Source: a virus. Taken from it: DNA of 55,877 nt. Each line of letters starts with the position of its first letter. The first letter of the stretch is position 1. Of this stretch, positions 31,345-49,185 are shown piece after piece. The stretch lies in IMG/VR virus record IMGVR_UViG_3300045988_101944; one strand, written 5' to 3'. The translations under genes and the position numbers were made by a program. Below the pieces are notes generated by a model. That model was not told the origin of the DNA. It was given only the letters and a program-made list of their open reading frames with translations, and made no database searches.

Positions 31345-31821
31345 TTATTCCCCCGGTGTAAAGTCTACCTTTGTATCAGGGTCTTTTTTCTCAACAATAG
31401 TTAAGTTCATCTCAACTGTTAAGATTTCATTCTGCCCGATTTCCGGCTGAGGGATGCTTTCCGGTGGCTCTGCGATAACAAATAACGCTTTAGTAATGCC
31501 CGGAATGATAGTTTCAAACCACATCTGTTTCCCGCCTGTCAACGCTTTATACGCCTTTATAAGAGCTTCCCACTCTTTTTCGGTATCATCCGTAAAGTTT
31601 ACCGTTACTGCAAAAGACCCACCAGTATCGGCACGACCTTTGACATATTTTGTCGTGTAATCTTCAAGTGCTGATGCGTCTATTTGCTCCGGCTCAATAT
31701 TGATACCGCCGATTGCATTTATTCTTGTAAGCTGTTTAAAAGCTGTCGGCTTTTCTCCGGCTGTCGCTTCTACACCATAACCAAAAGTAATACCGAGTGT
31801 CGAAATTCCGGCTGCTGCCAT
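31345..31821 (-). CDS. Major tail (tube) protein
   Basis: Start moved to the ATG at 31821 after AAGTGAGG. 158 aa. Position and size fit a siphovirus tube protein. Confidence 0.6.
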   Translation of the reverse strand: MAAAGISTLGITFGYGVEATAGEKPTAFKQLTRINAIGGINIEPEQIDASALEDYTTKYVKGRADTGGSFAVTVNFTDDTEKEWEALIKAYKALTGGKQMWFETIIPGITKALFVIAEPPESIPQPEIGQNEILTVEMNLTIVEKKDPDTKVDFTPGE

Positions 31822-38934: not shown

Positions 38935-40659
38935 TTATATTGGACTTGACATAATTACTGTCTTTTTTATTCTGTTTCCTTTTGTCATTCTTAATGCAAA
39001 GTTTGAAAAAACATCCGGTACATCATCTAATTGTTTTTTACCTGACACCGAATATTGCTTTAATAATGACATCATTACTCCATATGGCTCGTTAGGCTTA
39101 TAAAGTGAGGGGTCTTTAAAAATAATGTGCTGTAATATCCAGTTAGAACATTGGAATATCCTTGCTTCCTTATTTGTTTCCGTTGGGGTGTCAGTGATGT
39201 TACATATCCATCCGACACTCTCAACACGCTTATTAACTTCCATTGCAACTCTGTCTCCACCGGCATTACGCTCAAATTCACATTCCTGTACTTTATTATT
39301 TACAAGCACGCCCGCTGCGTTCCTGTATTGGGCTTCATAGTCCGCTGTATTATCACACACGCAATCAACACAATAATAATCATCCCCATACTTTTGAAGA
39401 ATCGGTAATACAAAATAATCCGTTCCTTTTCCTTTTGTATCACATTGCCCTGTAATAATCTCCGGTTCTCCGTGTGGCAAATTAAGGTATCTGCGTATTT
39501 TATCATCAGGAAACAATAATCCCTCACGCTCAATGGGTTCTTGTTTATACAAACATCTATAAGAGATTTCATCCATCAAAAGTTGTTGGTCTGCAAAGAA
39601 CTCTTTTGTAAAGCCCCCATATTCGTAATTAAAATTGCTTTCTCCTGTAACCGGGTCAACATCCGGTACTGCAATCACTTTAACCCTCGGATTTTCCTCA
39701 TACATATTTTGTATTCTTCCAATAACATCATGTACCGACCACCTAGTAGCAATGTGTATCTCCTTACACGGCTTTCCGTCCGTGTCTTGCGTCTTACGCT
39801 GTCTTGCGTCTACTGCATACTTATTCCATAGTTTATCAAGAATAACTGGATTTAAGGCTTCCTCAATACCGCCTATCATATCATCTACAAGTAAAAATTT
39901 ACTCGCACGAACTTTACCAGCATTTTTACTTCCTACAGATGTGCATTGTACGCTTGGAAACGGTTTATATTTCCCTATGTTAAACTGTTCCATCTTTGCA
40001 TTTGTGCTTGTTACTGAAAGTTTTGGAAATATTTCATGCCATGCATATTCCTCGTCATTTGTCACAATGTCGTAAACGCCATCATAATACATTCGTGTAA
40101 TATCACCGCTATGCGAATAAAACAAGCTATAATCTTTCGGAAACCAACCGGCTATACCGGAGTGAAAAAACTTTTCAACCGTACTTTTCCCAGCCCCCGG
40201 CACTAAGCTGACACACAAAATATCGTATTTATCATCAATCATGCCTTGCAATGCATCAATAAGCCCAATTTTTACTAATTGCTTTCTTCGTGGCATATAA
40301 AATCTGTCTTTAGGCTCTCTTTTTCTCTCTATGTACTGAAAATAACTGTCTACAATTTTGTTTTGAGCTTCATATAATGTTGGTTTATAATATTTATCAA
40401 TTAAATCATACTCAACTTTATTCTCAAACGCATACTTTTCCAATTTCCATATTGTGCCGCCTGTTTTTTTCATGCAAAAACGCTCTACAAAGTCCTTAGA
40501 ACGCTTTGTAAGTTGCAATCCATACTGAATATCCTTTTCTGTATTTATTGCCACTCCTGCCGCTTCTATGTATGCATCAATAACATTTTCATCTATTCCA
40601 TTTTTCTCTATGTAATTTTCATAACTTTGAACTGTTTCTTTAAGATATTTAGATGCCAA
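38935..40659 (-). CDS. Terminase large subunit
   Basis: 574 aa with Walker A VPGAGKST, Walker B LLVDD and a C-terminal nuclease-size domain. Confidence 0.85.
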   Translation of the reverse strand: MASKYLKETVQSYENYIEKNGIDENVIDAYIEAAGVAINTEKDIQYGLQLTKRSKDFVERFCMKKTGGTIWKLEKYAFENKVEYDLIDKYYKPTLYEAQNKIVDSYFQYIERKREPKDRFYMPRRKQLVKIGLIDALQGMIDDKYDILCVSLVPGAGKSTVEKFFHSGIAGWFPKDYSLFYSHSGDITRMYYDGVYDIVTNDEEYAWHEIFPKLSVTSTNAKMEQFNIGKYKPFPSVQCTSVGSKNAGKVRASKFLLVDDMIGGIEEALNPVILDKLWNKYAVDARQRKTQDTDGKPCKEIHIATRWSVHDVIGRIQNMYEENPRVKVIAVPDVDPVTGESNFNYEYGGFTKEFFADQQLLMDEISYRCLYKQEPIEREGLLFPDDKIRRYLNLPHGEPEIITGQCDTKGKGTDYFVLPILQKYGDDYYCVDCVCDNTADYEAQYRNAAGVLVNNKVQECEFERNAGGDRVAMEVNKRVESVGWICNITDTPTETNKEARIFQCSNWILQHIIFKDPSLYKPNEPYGVMMSLLKQYSVSGKKQLDDVPDVFSNFALRMTKGNRIKKTVIMSSPI

Positions 40660-40758: not shown

Positions 40759-41967
40759 TTATTCGTTTGCTTTGAAATTGTAAATCGGTTTAATAATGTC
40801 AACTATTTCAACAGTATCTTTTATATTTCCAATTATTTCATCCATTGTTTTATATGCCATAGGGCTTTCATCAATCGTAGATGTATTTACGGATGTTGTA
40901 AATATTCCATCCATTGCTTTTTGATACTCTTCTAGCAAAATGCTTTCTTTTGCTTTTGACCTGCTCATTGTTCGCCCTGCTCCATGCGGTGCTGAATAAT
41001 TCCAATCTTCATTTCCTTTGCCAATTCCCAAAATGCAACCGTCACGCATGTTTATCGGTATTAGTACCTTTTCGCCTGTTTTTGCAGAAATAGCACCTTT
41101 ACGAACAATATTTGTATCGTGTTCAATGTAGTTGTGAATTGTTTGAAATCGTTCTGTTTCTTTTGTAACTTTCCAACCCATATAGTAACAAATAATGCTC
41201 TGAATGGCTCTTCTGTTAATTTCCGCAAACTCTTGACATAATTTCATATCGTGCAAATACATTTCTCTATGTTTTCCAACAAGATATGATAACTCTCTAG
41301 GGATTTTAGTTGTATTTGCTTCGTAGGACTGCTTTAATTCTTTGATAGCCTTGCTGATTTCTCTTTCTCTTTTACATTTTTTGTATTCAGCAATCAATTT
41401 CTCACTATCTTGTTTAAAATTCGATTTTCCCGATATATCATCAATCGCCATTTGCTGATATATTTCTGCAACTTGCTTTCCGACATTTCTACTTCCCGAA
41501 TGAATAACAAGATATTTATTATTCTTGCTATCGCTATCAACTTCGATAAAATGATTGCCGCCTCCCAACGTGCCGCAACTCCTTTTCAGCCAATCTATAT
41601 TTTTCAACTGTTCCTTGCAATACAATTTTTCAATAATATCGCTTGCGACAGACGAGTTTTCTTCTCCATGAACTTTTCTACCGCTTGGAACATATTCTCT
41701 AATGATGTTATCCAATCTCTCAAAATCAATATCAATATTCCCCAAGTTTGTAGTAAGCATCCCACAGCCTATGTCAACTCCAACAATGTTCGGTATTACT
41801 TTTTCTCCTAAATCAGCAGTAAACCCGATAACACACCCTGCTCCTGCATGAACATCTGGCATAATTCTTATCTTACAATCCGAAAATGCTGGCTGTTTAA
41901 CAAGCGTATATATCTGATTTAACGCTTCCTGTTCTATATTTTCTGTAAATATTTTCAAATCAGCCAT
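40759..41967 (-). CDS. rtcB: RtcB RNA 3'-phosphate/2',3'-cyclic-phosphate to 5'-OH ligase
   Basis: 402 aa with the RtcB motifs MPDVHAGAG, GVDIGCGM, GGGNHFIE, HSGSRNVG and SAPHGAGR. Confidence 0.9.
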   Translation of the reverse strand: MADLKIFTENIEQEALNQIYTLVKQPAFSDCKIRIMPDVHAGAGCVIGFTADLGEKVIPNIVGVDIGCGMLTTNLGNIDIDFERLDNIIREYVPSGRKVHGEENSSVASDIIEKLYCKEQLKNIDWLKRSCGTLGGGNHFIEVDSDSKNNKYLVIHSGSRNVGKQVAEIYQQMAIDDISGKSNFKQDSEKLIAEYKKCKREREISKAIKELKQSYEANTTKIPRELSYLVGKHREMYLHDMKLCQEFAEINRRAIQSIICYYMGWKVTKETERFQTIHNYIEHDTNIVRKGAISAKTGEKVLIPINMRDGCILGIGKGNEDWNYSAPHGAGRTMSRSKAKESILLEEYQKAMDGIFTTSVNTSTIDESPMAYKTMDEIIGNIKDTVEIVDIIKPIYNFKANE

Positions 41968-44517: not shown

Positions 44518-45036
44518 TCACTGTTTATATTCTTTGATAATCTGTGAAATCCGCCCCTGTGAGCACCCCATTTCATCAGCAATCTTTGCTTGCGACCATT
44601 TGGCATTATGTAAAGCCATTACCTTGCCTACATCAATAGAACTCTTTTCCACTGATGTTTTATTAGAAGTATCTGTTTCTTCATTTTCGTTCTCGTTATC
44701 TTCTCCAAAAACTTCGGTATATTCATCCCGAACCTGTTCTTCAAATGCCTTTTGATTTGCGTTATCTTTCTCTCTGTCCAGTTCCATCGTTGTCATAACA
44801 CAATATCCAGCAAGGTCTAGCAGCGTATCTCTTATAGTTTCGTCAGCAACTTTCTGTTCTGCTCCTAATGCCATATTATCAAGTCTGTTCCATTTATCTT
44901 CCATGCGAACCATAGCCGCTACTAATCCATATTTCTTAAATGAACGACTAAAGCTATCGCCGTAATCGTGATTTTTCTTGACATATGTATCATGTATCTG
45001 TTGTAAAAGTATTTTGTGTTGTTCCAAATTATCCAT
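44518..45036 (-). CDS. DUF1599-like (nucleotide-modification-associated) domain fused to a C-terminal HTH
   Basis: N terminus KKNHDYGDSF...MVRMEDKWNRL...DLAGYCVM. C terminus WSQAKIADEMGCSQGRISQIIKEY. Confidence 0.5.
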   Translation of the reverse strand: MDNLEQHKILLQQIHDTYVKKNHDYGDSFSRSFKKYGLVAAMVRMEDKWNRLDNMALGAEQKVADETIRDTLLDLAGYCVMTTMELDREKDNANQKAFEEQVRDEYTEVFGEDNENENEETDTSNKTSVEKSSIDVGKVMALHNAKWSQAKIADEMGCSQGRISQIIKEYKQ

Positions 45037-45093: not shown

Positions 45094-45203
45094 ATAGTTG
45101 CCGTGGGAGTCGAACCCACCCGACCCAAACAATGCTCGACTGCTTTTGAATCTGCAAATTCTACTTGCAGAAGTGTTTTTCGTTGACCGATAATGAGCAA
45201 CTA
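45094..45203 (-). ncRNA. 109-nt tRNA-like gene with an 8-bp acceptor plus 5-bp T stem (tRNA-Sec/allo-tRNA-like geometry) and non-standard internal arms
   Basis: Folded by eye. Acceptor TAGTTGCT/GGCAACTA; D-position TTATCG-GTCAA-CGAAAA; hairpin TCTGCAA-GTAGAAT-TTGCAGA; extra arm AAGCAG-TCGAGCA-TTGTTT; T arm GTGGG-TTCGACT-CCCAC. Confidence 0.45.
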
Positions 45204-45271
45204 CTATCCATACATCTCCCATCGACCGGAACTATTGCAGTAGTGCCCGACCAAGTGGAGATAAAGATAAG

Positions 45272-45339
45272 CACGCCCGGAAAGCATCGAACTTTCGTTA
45301 GAGGTTTTGGAGACCTCATTCTGGCCAACAGACAGACGC
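45272..45339 (-). tRNA. tRNA-Trp(CCA) with a reduced D arm
   Basis: Anticodon arm GAGGT-CTCCAAA-ACCTC; T arm GAAAG-TTCGATG-CTTTC; acceptor GCGTCTG/CGGGCGT (3 G.U pairs); D arm only CTG-TTGGC-CAG. Total 68 nt. Confidence 0.55.
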
Positions 45340-45371
45340 ATATAAAGTTTTCACGATAGTTTTGAGGATAA

Positions 45372-45500
45372 GTAGATAGGTGTGGATTTGCACCACACAG
45401 GAAAGACTTACTTTCTCATAATGTCCCCTGAGAAATACTTTCTCTGTATTGCGTTTTGCAATAGACATTTCATAGCGTTTACCTATTCCGCCACTATCTA
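45372..45500 (-). ncRNA. 129-nt tRNA-like gene whose anticodon domain is replaced by a roughly 75-nt multi-hairpin insert
   Basis: Acceptor TAGATAG/CTATCTA; D arm GCG-GAATAGGTAAA-CGC; T arm GTGTGG-TGCAAAT-CCACAC (G at T-loop position 2). The insert has the closing stem AATGTC/GACATT, with hairpins TATTGC-AAAAC-GCAATA and GAGAAA-GTA-TTTCTC inside it and GAAAG-TAAGT-CTTTC 3' of it. Confidence 0.45.
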
Positions 45501-45584
45501 CCACCCGCGTCGTAACTAGTATTTTTGCGTAGGCATATTATTTGGTTATTCAATATGCCGTCAGTAAACAACAGCATATTGCCA

Positions 45585-45664
45585 TCGGATAGACAGGGCT
45601 CGAACCTGTGACTCCCTCCGCTACCATTACCGCAGTGGGTTTCTCCCAACTGAACTACTATCCG
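45585..45664 (-). ncRNA. 80-nt tRNA-like gene with an anticodon arm 7 nt too long (7-bp stem, 10-nt loop)
   Basis: Acceptor CGGATAG/CTATCCG (perfect); D arm GTTC-AGTTGGGA-GAAAC; T arm ACAGG-TTCGAGC-CCTGT; anticodon region CCACTGC-GGTAATGGTA-GCGGAGG. No 5-bp/7-nt solution exists in any register. Confidence 0.5.
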
Positions 45665-45860
45665 TTATATAGTTTAATTAGCTGCTAAAACAGGTTTCTC
45701 AACTCACAGCATTGCATATCCCCACTACGAACATTGATATGCGTTCCCACTCGAATTGATGTGGTGTGGATTTGAACCGCACATAGCAATCACTTTGCAA
45801 CAGGTAACACCCATACAGGTTTCTTTGCCGACATTGTTTTCTGCACAAGTGTTGACATAA

Positions 45861-45943
45861 CGCAGACACAAGGATTTGAACCTTGACAGCATTTCTGCTG
45901 GATAGCTTAGCAAGCTACTGTGATACCATTACACCATATCTGC
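45861..45943 (-). tRNA. tRNA-Ser(GCU), type II
   Basis: Acceptor GCAGATA/TGTCTGC; anticodon arm GTAGC-TTGCTAA-GCTAT; variable arm AGCA-GAAA-TGCT; T arm CAAGG-TTCAAAT-CCTTG; discriminator G. Confidence 0.85.
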
Positions 45944-46135
45944 ATAACTGGTCAGTTTCCGTTTTTACTTACTCCACACTGCCCTAAGTGTAAGGTTCTT
46001 TTAGTCAGCGGTTAACGCTATCTTTTGAATAACAACCGCTCAATTCAGTTCCCTGTGCTAAGTTTAACCGGTATATTGATTAGCACCTGCATTTCTATAA
46101 TAAACGCACTAGGAGTGTACTGACAACATCACCAA

Positions 46136-46207
46136 CTGGCATAGCAGGTATCGAACCTACGACCCACAGATTAACAATCTGTTGCTCTACCACTGAGCTA
46201 TATACCA
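46136..46207 (-). tRNA. tRNA-Asn(GUU)
   Basis: TGGTATA-TA-GCTC-AGTGGTA-GAGC-A-ACAGA-TTGTTAA-TCTGT-GGGTC-GTAGG-TTCGATA-CCTGC-TATGCCA-G forms a canonical cloverleaf. Confidence 0.9.
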
Positions 46208-46461
46208 AAATTGCATACACCTCTGTATAGGCTTTTAAGATGGTATGCAAGCACCTGTGTGTTATGGGGGTGTGAAATTTGTAATGGAACTACATTAGTC
46301 CAGTACGGAAAAAGTATGTAAGTTCGGGCATCGTGGGATAGACACCCGAACAACCACACCGAGCCGTGCGATGGCTCTTAACAGCATTCCGCTAGTGTGG
46401 GAAAGGAGTTTTTCTCCGCGATTTTGCAAGAAGAAAAACAAAGATGGCATATCTTGCCAAA

Positions 46462-46533
46462 CTGGGGTAATGGGATTTGAACCCATGATGTAGCAGTCAA
46501 AGTGCTATGCCTTAACCTCTTGGCGATACCCCA
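46462..46533 (-). tRNA. tRNA-Gln(UUG)
   Basis: TGGGGTA-TC-GCC-AAGAGGTTAA-GGC-A-TAGCA-CTTTGAC-TGCTA-CATC-ATGGG-TTCAAAT-CCCAT-TACCCCA-G, with the U1-A72 pair typical of bacterial tRNA-Gln. Confidence 0.9.
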
Positions 46534-47434: not shown

Positions 47435-47650
47435 AGACTACTCCTTTTCCTGAAAAGCCGGTTTTTGTTTTTGAGGTTGTTTGAGGGACTTAGTGGGTCG
47501 ATTTTTTCAAGCTCACCAGAGGGGTACCCCCTGCCGCAATGATTGTTGGCTTTACTGTTGTGAACATATATTTGTAAATACCAAAAATCTGTCATTTTCT
47601 TTAACTATTCGTAAAAGTATAGTTTAGCGAAGAGTTGAGTTCTTAAACCG

Positions 47651-48322
47651 CTATATCTTGTTGTTCTTATCCTCAACAGCCGCTACATGTCGTGGTGCTG
47701 TGTCATGTCGTGGTGCTGTGTCAAGTCTTGGAAGCTCTGCTGCTGTCTTTTGTTCGACTTGCTGTACATGAAGCTTGCCGTCTTCTCGCCAACCCTTTTT
47801 ATGATTGAGTGCTGCGAGTGCTCCGGTCGGGTTTCTGAGTGAGAACGCTTTAGACATCAAAGCCTCTTCCTCACTATCATAAAGATTTTGCAAAAACTCT
47901 GAACCCGCTTTACTTAGTACACTACTATCTTTCTTCCACCTGCATATAGTATCTACTGTAATACCTGTCATATATATAAATCCTTGTTGAGTAGGTATTT
48001 TATCATATAGCATACACTCATATATATATATATCGCATATACGTTTTACTTTCTCTAAGTCATATGCATTACAGTTACTCTTATTAAGATTGCTATGCTC
48101 GTTGTCATAGTTGTTGTTTATATAACCCTCTGGTGGTGTAGTCATTTTTAACATTTTATTATTTTTAAATACATGCTTTTGAATGTACATCAATGCAGAA
48201 CTCCACACGTTTTGCGGTTCGCTTCTCATGTCTTTTATGCCCTGCTCTTCAAGAAAAAGCTGTAAATATTTATCTACATCATTTTCAAAAACATCTATGT
48301 TTTGCTCTACATCCTTTACCAT
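47651..48322 (-). CDS. Terminase small subunit (putative)
   Basis: Start at the ATG at 48322 after GGAGGTGAG. The pattern IPTQQGFIYMTGITVDTICRWKKD...EEALMSKAF..RNPTGALAALNHKKGW resembles small terminases. It is adjacent to the HNH gene and the repeat array. Confidence 0.55.
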   Translation of the reverse strand: MVKDVEQNIDVFENDVDKYLQLFLEEQGIKDMRSEPQNVWSSALMYIQKHVFKNNKMLKMTTPPEGYINNNYDNEHSNLNKSNCNAYDLEKVKRICDIYIYECMLYDKIPTQQGFIYMTGITVDTICRWKKDSSVLSKAGSEFLQNLYDSEEEALMSKAFSLRNPTGALAALNHKKGWREDGKLHVQQVEQKTAAELPRLDTAPRHDTAPRHVAAVEDKNNKI

Positions 48323-48514
48323 CTTCTCACCTCCAGTATTGTTATATAAATAAAAAAGCACCTGAAAAAGATATTATACATGGCATATACGCTATATATG
48401 TTCATATCTCTCAAGTGCAATTCTGCTAAATATTTAATTTATGCATCTACTATACAGCTAAATACAACTACTGTCAATACCCTAAATATATTTTTTTGCT
48501 TTATATATAATCTA

Positions 48515-48620
48515 TATACTGGCTATATGTATGTATAATTTACTGTATTGGTTTATAATATACTCTACTGGCTGTATTTATATATATTTATGCTTAATAT
48601 ACTTTACTGGCTAATACTAT
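48515..48620. repeat. Three phased copies of a TACTGGCT-containing motif at a 39-bp period, in a 480-bp A+T-rich non-coding region
   Basis: ACTGGCT occurs at 48528, 48567 and 48606. Copies 2 and 3 share TAATATACT[CT]TACTGGCT. Confidence 0.8.
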
Positions 48621-48852
48621 AGTTTTATCTAAGAGTTTAATTCTTTGATATAACAGTAACAGATAACAGATGCTTGCATGGTGTATCGAAAAACTCGAAA
48701 ATCTGTATAAACATAGTATGTTTTTTAGGCAAAACTAACATAAAACATTATAAATAGCATTAAAGTTTTGTAAATTTTCAACTATAAAAACACACATTAT
48801 ATAATTATACAAAAATTCGAGTTTATAAGTTTAAAGATAATATTAAGTTGTA

Positions 48853-49185
48853 CTATTTTTTTAGAAATTTTCGTTTTTCAAAATAAAACTTGATGGGTCT
48901 TCTAACAATCGTCATATATTTATCAACCATCATCACATGTTTATCCGTATGAAGATAATTCAAAATAACTCTTCTAAATTCCTCTATACTTTTGTCGCCT
49001 TTTATCATGTTGCATTGAGGGCAAGCAGGAACAAGATTTTCCCTCATTTTTCCACCCTTGGCTTTCGGGATAAAATGGTCTACATGAAAATTTTCTAAAT
49101 CAATGTCATAACCGCAATAAAAGCACTTCCCTCTAGTCATGTCATAGATTTGCTTTCTTCGTTCTTTAGTCATGGTTTTGCTCAT
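48853..49185 (-). CDS. HNH endonuclease
   Basis: Contains CFYCGYDI...HVDHFIPKAKGG...NLVPACPQCNMIKGDK. Confidence 0.85.
   Translation of the reverse strand: MSKTMTKERRKQIYDMTRGKCFYCGYDIDLENFHVDHFIPKAKGGKMRENLVPACPQCNMIKGDKSIEEFRRVILNYLHTDKHVMMVDKYMTIVRRPIKFYFEKRKFLKK

Follow-up and report, generated by a model that had tools for sequence, protein, structure and literature searches.

Modular, non-decoding tRNA-shaped RNAs in the RNA-gene island of an uncultured phage, one of them from a widespread family

Phage tRNA genes are usually explained by codon usage and, lately, by escape from host anticodon nucleases. What, then, are the genes in a phage tRNA array that have the outline of a tRNA but lack an anticodon arm? 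We addressed this question at a locus in the IMG/VR virus record IMGVR_UViG_3300045988_101944, a stretch of 55,877 nucleotides that we call, as a whole, the window. At 45095-46533 the window carries an RNA-gene array on the minus strand, the strand of the phage genes. This island contains tRNA-Gln(UUG), tRNA-Asn(GUU), tRNA-Ser(GCU), a borderline Trp-like gene, three aberrant elements closed by an acceptor helix, and a lone T arm. A preliminary description, made from the letters alone, had taken the island for a dedicated structured-RNA locus rather than a simple tRNA set, and related phages bear this out, since they keep the aberrant elements with compensatory changes. We conclude with high confidence that the island encodes selected, non-decoding, modular tRNA-shaped RNAs, one of which comes from a widespread family. 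These RNAs keep the upper half of a tRNA (a 7-bp acceptor, a T arm, usually a D arm, and the elbow) and have a different structured domain below.

We scanned the island for T arms followed by seven nucleotides able to pair with a 7-mer further upstream (acceptor closure). The scan recovered every aberrant element that had been listed before, three with a perfect 7-bp closure (45585-45664, 45373-45500 with the discriminator at 45372, and 45095-45203) and one, at 45764-45782, as a T arm without a 5' partner strand. A 5-bp anticodon stem with a 7-nt loop was found in none of 45585-45664, 45372-45500 and 45095-45203. The four elements are as follows.

45585-45664, minus strand: TL4, an 80-nt tRNA-shaped RNA (ARAGORN 'Leu(taa)'; Rfam tRNA model in sensitive mode only, 35.6 bits)
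45372-45500, minus strand: LTL, 128 nt plus discriminator C (closure scan, family signature, covariation)
45095-45203, minus strand: E7, a third kind of tRNA-shaped RNA, 108-109 nt (closure scan, covariation)
45756-45829, minus strand: 5'-truncated LTL relic (T arm 45764-45782 with a C.A mismatch; acceptor 3' strand CACAUCA)

We coined the name LTL, for long tRNA-Leu-like RNA, for a family defined by a 7-bp acceptor whose register around U8-G9 is fixed, a D arm of the tRNA-Leu type, about 40-150 nt of insert, and a T arm with 6 bp in the stem and U(G/U)CAAAU in the loop. The window LTL begins with the acceptor UAGAUAG/CUAUCUA, U8 G9 and a D arm GCG-GAAUAGGUAAA-CGC. These are followed by a 72-nt multi-hairpin insert, standing where the anticodon and variable arms would be, and by a 6-bp T stem GUGUGG/CCACAC with the T loop UGCAAAU. 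All of its helices close, and the LTL signature matched the window once against an expectation of 0 from 100 shuffles. Because the T stem consists of six pairs, not five, acceptor and T stem together form a 13-bp stack. Neither the window LTL nor E7 gave an Rfam match at E<=10, and ARAGORN called neither of them even with introns allowed. E7 has the acceptor AGUUGCU/GGCAACU, the T arm GUGGG-UUCGACU-CCCAC and, at the anticodon-arm site, a stem with a large conserved loop (UAGAAUUUGCAGAUU) that includes an invariant UAGAAWUUGCAGAUU.

To follow these elements through related phages, we took 111 related loci from IMG/VR by searches with RtcB, an RNA ligase encoded on the window, and with the 172-aa protein encoded just downstream of the island. 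No DNA-level relatives were found among GenBank phages; the nearest, Dulem virus 39 from lemur faeces, shares 78% identity in the TerL protein. When the island was compared with the 111 loci by BLAST, all of its tRNAs and aberrant elements recurred, at 75-100% identity and in varied combinations and orders. So did 80 nt of the Gln-Asn spacer and 30 nt surrounding the lone T arm, and the DNA between the recurring modules is unrelated among loci. According to ARAGORN, tRNA-Gln(UUG) is the first island gene in nearly all relatives; the sets that follow it comprise Asn, Ser, Tyr, Cys, Ile(UAU) and Arg(ACG) tRNAs, UUA/UCA suppressors, and cloverleaves with AUU or AAU anticodons. Phages exchange the modules of the island, and cargo domains pass from one scaffold to another.

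TL4 illustrates such an exchange of domains. Its Rfam alignment needs a 21-nt insertion at the anticodon-arm site, and a 26-nt irregular hairpin (CCCACUGC / GCGGAGGG, with a loop of about 10 nt) stands in place of the 17-nt anticodon arm. Outside that arm, TL4 is identical at 25 of 26 and 27 of 29 nt to 72-nt cloverleaf tRNAs of relatives, whose anticodons, UUA or UCA, make them ochre and opal suppressors. The window copy has no stop-codon anticodon in a 7-nt loop. TL4 is a suppressor-tRNA frame with a replaced anticodon arm. Other relatives have 69-, 81-, 118- and 139-nt versions of the same frame, the 139-nt version with a cargo homologous to an LTL insert class. The 72-nt suppressor tRNAs on the TL4 frame were seen at the related loci L036-L038, L086 and L111 (UUA) and at L081 and L082 (UCA).

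A mosaic island with frequent gain and loss of modules would fit decaying tRNA pseudogenes and recombination debris without function, and so would the relic at 45756-45829 with its T-stem mismatch and the unstructured spacers 45945-46134 and 45665-45859. Against such decay stand compensatory substitutions in all three aberrant kinds. The 45 distinct LTL sequences in this phage group comprise five acceptor helices and several T stems; their inserts, of 55-145 nt, fall into about ten classes unrelated to one another, and total lengths are 110-202 nt. Among 30 distinct combinations of their ends, the acceptor, D and T helices are 95% paired, compared with 76% after shuffling. Double-sided changes occur at 12 of the 16 pairs, 0 of 500 shuffles reached the observed pairing or number of changes, and the covariation signal was lost when the partner was slid by 1-3 columns. 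The nine distinct versions of E7 show the same behavior, the acceptor changing from AGUUG to AGCGG and the T stem appearing as GUGGG, CGGAG, CAGGG and CAAGG. Because relatives keep the helices by compensatory changes, the three kinds of complete aberrant element are not decaying pseudogenes. They came through the check that the preliminary description had set for them, namely whether relatives let them decay without compensation or programs fold them as ordinary tRNAs.

The lone T arm differs from these three. Its conserved block is, in most loci, the 3' end of a complete element, the 5' end of which, UGAUGUG-UG-GCGGAAUGGGUAAACGC, consists of an acceptor strand able to pair with the CACAUCA that follows the T arm and, next to it, a tRNA-Leu-type D arm. 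The window LTL shares the layout of these UGAUGUG-type elements and differs from them in its acceptor helix, where all changes are compensated. The 3' block of 45756-45829 is about 97% identical to complete LTLs that carry UGAUGUG in many loci. It retains the 3' half of the 'class F' insert (the 157-159-nt class), and its 5' acceptor strand and D arm are gone. The element is the relic of an LTL copy lacking its 5' half, and the notion that the lone T arm is a functional mini-element was not upheld.

The LTL family extends far beyond this phage group. Scans with the signature GAATRGGTARAC-N58-88-GGTKCAAATCC found it in at least 120 IMG/VR viral contigs and in at least 120 species genomes. Among the matches listed, the genomes are nearly all from Bacillota, with Listeria, Bacillus, Paenibacillus, Lactobacillaceae, Leuconostoc, Weissella, Enterococcus, Clostridia, Lachnospiraceae, Faecalibacterium and Erysipelotrichaceae represented. 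We counted pairing in 206 distinct copies among the matches listed, with no selection for pairing. All seven acceptor pairs form in the fixed register in 166 copies (81%), among which 129 distinct acceptor strands occur; with the register shifted, the number of closed copies falls to 0 or 1. The four T-stem pairs that the pattern leaves free are kept in 193 copies (94%) and the D stem in 191 (93%).

The consensus of the family reads N6G-UG-GCGGAAUAGGUAGACGC-[insert]-cAUG-(6-bp stem, loop UGCAAAU)-C-N6-N, with U8, A14, A15, G18, G19, C56, A58 and a U at the place of U48 kept. By analogy with tRNA, the kept nucleotides would be those that build the tRNA core and elbow. The derived traits are a G for pseudouridine-55, the 13-bp acceptor and T stack, and a conserved G7-C66 pair. 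The discriminator is A in 55%; CCA is not encoded, the next base is usually U and the trailer is U-rich. When a tRNA-Leu anticodon and variable arm were grafted onto 100 LTL scaffolds and G55 was changed to U, ARAGORN called all 100 as tRNA-Leu, and the LTL frame is a genuine tRNA frame. These family-wide counts bear on the pseudogene explanation as well, to which we give hardly any credence: some 200 distinct copies in diverse phages and hosts close with completely diverse acceptors, and the derived signature (6-bp T stem, G55, G7-C66) is kept throughout.

No family in Rfam 15 matches LTL, and keyword and sequence-motif searches of the literature found no description of it. A survey of 10,006 viral structured-RNA candidates mentions unnamed tRNA-like ones. 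Three cultured Bacillus phages carry an LTL: phi3T (KY030782, 50193-50325; L353), Goe3 (KY368640, about 31448-31591; L355) and KLEB27-1 (OM654379, 63851-63962; L354). The genes are unannotated or lie under a short 'hypothetical protein' CDS (phi3T_57, Goe3_c06000, KLEB271_gp112), and the LTL of KLEB27-1 is about 370 nt from the integrase gene. Chromosomal, apparently non-prophage copies were also seen (loci L253, L273, L292 and L305 from Listeria cornellensis, L. rocourtiae and L. riparia, and loci L318, L326 and L352). These copies directly follow azlC-azlD, which encode a branched-chain amino-acid exporter, and are followed in turn by a convergent gene for a membrane protein.

The LTL insert is hypervariable between phages. 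Even so, its structure is under selection. The 111-114-nt class of LTL has two covarying helices that together make an H-type pseudoknot; this structure is 98% paired, with double changes at 14 of 27 pairs, and 0 of 500 shuffles reach its pairing or covariation score. For the class to which the window LTL belongs, a divergent relative has three compensatory pairs that back the first hairpin of the insert. A given insert class is found on different frames, and a given frame with different inserts. The LTL inserts of phi3T, which is temperate and SPbeta-like, and Goe3, a lytic herellevirus, are about 85% identical, and the acceptor, D and T helices of the two differ by compensatory changes. Both are phages of B. 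subtilis, and the likeness is the pattern that would be expected if the insert were matched to the host.

An insert in a genuine tRNA frame could also be an intron. According to this explanation, the elements are interrupted tRNAs from which an endonuclease excises the insert, and a phage RtcB rejoins the halves. RtcB joins 3'-phosphate or 2',3'-cyclic-phosphate ends to 5'-OH ends, and the window encodes such a protein; its gene lies 3 kb downstream of the island and is directly followed by the large terminase gene (38935-40659).

40759-41967, minus strand: predicted RtcB-type RNA ligase, 402 aa (PHROG 1075, E = 3.5e-128; Pfam PF01139, 9.8e-58)

Alignment to PDB RtcB entries showed that the motifs MPDvH, GGGNHF and HGAGR for metal binding and His-GMP are intact, and the product carries the RtcB fold signature. 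At least 80 related viral contigs have the gene at 95-99% identity, and it is present in all relatives whose sequence spans it. Besides this 'tRNA-splicing ligase', the 111-114-nt class supports an intron, in that it keeps a CUUAGAU loop like the anticodon loop of tRNA-Leu(UAG). We made every single contiguous deletion in silico and asked whether a tRNA resulted. For the window LTL and E7, the exhaustive deletions gave 0 tRNA calls. The wide test included a positive control, and G55 was changed to U beforehand because ARAGORN disfavours a G55 T loop. In 100 diverse LTL members the calls were spread across all anticodons (Leu 39, Ser 33 and Arg 22), the pattern expected of chance hairpins. The inserts, at about 40-150 nt, are also too short for group I introns; Rfam found no intron or ribozyme in them, and at 114 of the 120 viral loci listed RtcB is not in the surrounding stretch. 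An intron is therefore highly improbable. The earlier suggestion that the odd elements are precursors needing processing fails, as far as intron-bearing tRNAs are meant, on the same two results, the lack of a consistent tRNA after deletion and the absence of RtcB around most other family members.

A hypervariable loop in a tRNA-like RNA could instead pair with messages. RNase P excises the c4 RNA of phages P1 and P7, which then acts on genes further down the transcript that it came from, and LTL elements likewise lie upstream of co-oriented genes. They could thus be C4-like antisense regulators, tRNA-like RNAs processed by RNase P, with variable loops that base-pair to messages from their own operon; this would account for an insert that differs from phage to phage. 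However, the complementarity between the inserts of the window and its transcripts does not go beyond 11-mers, which is the chance level. At 110 diverse loci, the best insert-flank duplexes within 600 nt on each side were no better on the transcribed strand than on the opposite one (mean z -0.23 versus -0.28), and Rfam gave no c4 match. We consider this explanation very unlikely; cis-antisense pairing with neighbouring sequence was rejected on the chance-level 11-mers and the lack of strand bias.

The position of LTL in the genome raises a further possibility. In diverse genomes, prophages among them, LTL lies on the same strand as the genes. A late activator gene of the RinA or ArpU family precedes it by 350-550 nt, and the genes for an HNH endonuclease, TerS and TerL follow at 0.7 kb, 1.1 kb and 1.7-1.9 kb, respectively. 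RinA-type activators act on a promoter upstream of terS and thereby switch on the late operon (PMC3152322, PMC3753634). The phi3T LTL is downstream of yonO, between yonN and yonK. In Goe3, LTL is part of a tRNA island (Asn, Met, Arg, Asp, Tyr) situated immediately before the portal gene. The Goe3 island has the same architecture as that of the window: its spacers are long, tRNAs alternate with other odd elements that an acceptor helix closes, and the annotation places short 'hypothetical proteins' over these elements; the elements of the window, like those of Goe3, precede portal or terminase genes. Clustering of neighbouring ORFs at 240 loci gave no partner protein for LTL, only standard late and packaging genes.

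These positions support the main rival to a function of the released RNA, a cis-acting element of the late transcript. LTL would then be RNase P/Z punctuation, a 5' stabiliser against a 5'-3' exonuclease or a modifier of elongation, and the RNA that is released would have no job. Consistent with this, 80% of copies have no terminator-like hairpin within 90 nt downstream. Such hairpins nevertheless follow 20% of LTL copies, compared with 6% in a control interval, which suggests that some copies are independent genes. A processing signal, moreover, needs neither a hypervariable, structurally selected insert nor a cargo common to unrelated phages of one host, and in the phage group of the window several different copies occur per tRNA array, far from any start codon. 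On balance we hold a purely cis-acting role to be quite unlikely.

How might the RNAs themselves act? The explanation that we favour has three parts, modular tRNA-shaped RNAs, their maturation by tRNA enzymes and the capture of a host factor, and as a whole we rate it about evenly balanced between right and wrong. The tRNA frame would recruit host RNase P, RNase Z and the CCA-adding enzyme, and stable small RNAs would be cut from the long late transcript. Maturation by tRNA enzymes is fairly probable, with the lack of an encoded CCA and the U-rich trailer after the discriminator as indirect hints. The 13-bp stack, G55 and the missing anticodon would exclude the RNAs from decoding, and the inserted domain, or the uncleavable tRNA body itself, would bind a host factor. 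The likeliest targets would be tRNA-directed defence enzymes, sequestered at a time coupled to late gene expression. We put sequestration of such enzymes ahead of other roles because the window phage has tRNAs of its own, relatives that bear suppressor tRNAs, and an RtcB that would reseal 2',3'-cyclic-phosphate/5'-OH breaks; taken by itself, an anti-defence sponge role is possible but doubtful. In such a role the RNAs would stand beside these tRNAs and RtcB in one set of tRNA-protecting tools of the phage. The decoy and resistant-substitute roles proposed in the preliminary description are plausible candidates. More broadly, LTL could be a widespread anti-defence class of phage RNAs derived from tRNA-Leu, in which the conserved tRNA body provides for maturation and stability, and a fast-evolving, host-specific insert or the anticodon-less body captures tRNA-directed immune effectors or another host RNA-binding machine late in infection; the island would be its expansion in one lineage, along with tRNA-shaped RNAs of other kinds, among them those derived from suppressor tRNAs. 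This broader proposal is tentative and unlikely to hold in full.

Several points weigh against a scaffold that captures a host factor. Every functional step of the model is one that we infer. The position at the head of the late operon suits a cis role at least as well. If the tRNA body alone were the decoy, selection on the structure of the insert would be left unexplained. RtcB was near LTL in only 6 of the 120 viral loci listed, and 69 of the 120 have no tRNA in the surrounding stretch; with both neighbours so scarce, the link to tRNA repair may be incidental. Chromosomal LTL copies after azlC-azlD, found in seven genomes, at least four of them from Listeria relatives, do not fit a purely anti-defence role. 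Finally, the preliminary description had called the spacers of the island hairpin-rich. This holds for the Gln-Asn spacer, whose fold beats shuffles (z = -4.26), but not for the Asn-Ser spacer 45945-46134 (z = -0.6) or the Ser-TL4 spacer 45665-45859 (z = +0.84), which fold no better than shuffles.

We compared the elements with RNAs that they resemble. With bacterial and phage class II tRNA-Leu, LTL shares the 7-bp acceptor, U8, the D arm GCGGAAUAGGUAGACGC, G18 G19, and the T-loop nucleotides U54, C56, purine 57 and A58, and its A15 could form a Levitt pair with the U before the T stem. Unlike tRNA-Leu, it has no 5-bp/7-nt anticodon arm or consistent anticodon, a 13-bp instead of a 12-bp stack, G for pseudouridine-55, a first pair that is A-U or U-A as often as G-C, an insert of about 40-150 nt, and no Rfam tRNA match at E<=10. 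The architecture is the same as that of the engineered 'tRNA scaffold' of Ponchon and Dardel, in which a structured RNA reportedly replaces the anticodon arm and the chimera is processed and protected like a tRNA. That scaffold is a laboratory design, whereas LTL is a natural, evolving family with a derived T arm, for which processing and stability are only predicted.

Phage T4 has two stable RNAs of unknown function, 'species 1 and 2' (rnaC, rnaD), that are encoded among its tRNA genes and matured from the same precursors. The setting in a tRNA cluster is the same, though with a Gram-negative host; the fold, compared by description only, is presumably different, and we claim no membership. 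YrlA ends in a Ro60-binding stem on the anticodon side and its acceptor-like stem is closed, whereas the elements here have open ends at the acceptor helix. This bacterial Y-RNA-like ncRNA has a tRNA-like module and is encoded beside rsr and rtcB in Salmonella (PMC4201824). The elements here share with it the module (acceptor-like, D and T arms) and the association with an RtcB locus; a Ro60-like protein was not found among the 30 window proteins scanned, nor a Y-RNA-like match in Rfam. tmRNA likewise has a tRNA-like domain of acceptor and T arm with a large pseudoknotted insertion, but LTL has a full D arm and no coding tag region, and is far shorter. GOLLD and ROOL are phage-borne structured RNAs of 500-800 nt and unknown function that are often beside tRNA genes and are not tRNA-shaped; they, too, are phage-borne near tRNA genes, and Rfam shows that they are absent here. 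Rfam gave no match in the window to tmRNA, Y RNA, ribozymes or other non-tRNA families, and an ARAGORN search of the window and the island found no tmRNA; models of tmRNA, Y RNA and known ribozymes were rejected on this basis. Leaving the engineered scaffold aside, the defining features of the T4 RNAs, YrlA and tmRNA are all absent from the elements.

tRNA-like ncRNAs as such are already known. New here are the distinct signature, the hypervariable cargo position and the wide distribution, and with them a third component of phage tRNA loci, selected and module-exchanged RNAs that have a tRNA body unable to decode. Since LTL occurs in model Bacillus phages (phi3T, Goe3 and apparently SBSphiJ-type phages), the role of the non-tRNA RNAs in phage tRNA clusters can be tested by B. 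subtilis genetics. If the RNAs act on host defences or on the machinery that handles tRNA, they would be a new type of RNA-based phage counter-measure and a natural counterpart of the tRNA scaffold used in RNA engineering. For annotation, short 'hypothetical proteins' over LTL elements should no longer be called.

The other features of the island are listed here from its upstream end.

46462-46533, minus strand: tRNA-Gln(UUG) (ARAGORN; Rfam 63.9 bits; no encoded CCA)
46445-46459, minus strand: hairpin UGGCAAGAUAUGCCA with a U-rich run, directly after tRNA-Gln (consensus scan, also seen in the fold)
46322-46401, minus strand: structured module in the Gln-Asn spacer, 80 nt, conserved and partly covarying
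46135-46208, minus strand: tRNA-Asn(GUU) (ARAGORN; Rfam 68.7 bits)
45860-45944, minus strand: tRNA-Ser(GCU), class II (ARAGORN; Rfam 59.1 bits)
45271-45339, minus strand: borderline tRNA-Trp(CCA)-like gene (ARAGORN only at lowered threshold)
45214-45262, minus strand: hairpin domain AUCUCC...GGGAGAU around an inner stem, which always accompanies E7

The Gln, Asn and Ser tRNAs are ordinary, as had been described: ARAGORN called them at default settings, and their Rfam scores, 59-69 bits, are above the RF00005 gathering threshold of 29 bits. The sequence also agrees with the earlier statement that none of the island tRNAs is followed by an encoded CCA. The hairpin after tRNA-Gln looks like a candidate terminator. 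In the module at 46322-46401, a helix CCACAC/GUGUGG encloses the hairpins AGC-GGAAU-GCU and GAGCC-7-nt loop-GGCUC, and a hairpin UUCGGG..CCCGAA follows. The module is kept in 60 related loci while its flanks change, and it covaries both in the outer helix (CCUCA/UGAGG, CCUAU/AUAGG) and in the last hairpin (UCGUG/CACGA). The hairpin domain beside E7 has two compensatory pairs in the alignment of nine distinct versions, a change from C-G to U-A in each stem. The Trp-like gene has a weak D arm and three G-U acceptor pairs, and Rfam gave no match to it at E<=10. Its homologues were found in two loci only, as Trp(cca) in L007 and as Cys(aca), with the anticodon ACA, in L009, and their sequences have compensatory acceptor and T-stem changes.

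The spacers in the island measure 253, 190, 195, 84, 32 and about 67 nt. The longest ORF has at most 64 aa, in line with the earlier view that the island contains no credible one. The higher G+C content that had been suspected was confirmed by calculation, 0.41-0.44 for the island and 0.30-0.40 for the flanking genes; further upstream, at 47550-47999, it is 0.43. Sigma-70-like promoter matches inside the island numbered 2, with 5.6 expected, and so were not in excess over chance. The promoter-like sites, both on the minus strand, are TTGTCA-18-TATTAT before tRNA-Ser (46097-46126) and CTGACG-16-AATAAT before LTL (45537-45564).

The window is DNA of a tailed, uncultured phage whose genes lie essentially all on the minus strand. 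A major head protein, a portal, a large terminase, a RecE-like exonuclease, a DnaD-like loader and anti-repressors suggest that it is siphovirus-like and infects Gram-positive bacteria. The placement of the island between the small and large terminase genes, as first described, needs qualification: about ten small ORFs and RtcB separate it from the large terminase gene, and the upstream 'small terminase' (47651-48361) is only a weak GP3_package match, below the Pfam cut-off. The gene just downstream of the island (44518-45036, minus strand) encodes the 172-aa protein, in which DUF1599 ('nucleotide modification associated') is fused to a sigma-70 region-4-like helix-turn-helix; with this fusion the protein may be a regulator. 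Upstream of the putative packaging genes, a very A+T-rich stretch (48450-49050, G+C 0.23-0.26) overlaps with the start of a small gene for an HNH endonuclease (48853-49185).

Further RNAs were seen in the relatives. Bacteria do not normally use A34 anticodons of the AUU or AAU type, and several relatives carry a well-formed 73-nt cloverleaf (CGGCAUG...) with the anticodon loop CUAUUAG or CUAAUAG, called 'Asn(att)' in L032, L033, L039, L041 and others and 'Ile(aat)' in L045, L050, L054 and others. These A34 anticodons switch between close relatives. The int-alpA RNA motif (RF02996, 45-50 bits) is absent from the window and was found in the RNA islands of two relatives, L035 (4594-4660), where it directly follows a TL4-type element, and L085 (407-471). 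A type II hammerhead ribozyme (RF02276, 60 bits) lies at 321-387 on the minus strand of locus L076, about 2.6 kb upstream of the RNA island, and its cleavage products would be substrates for RtcB.

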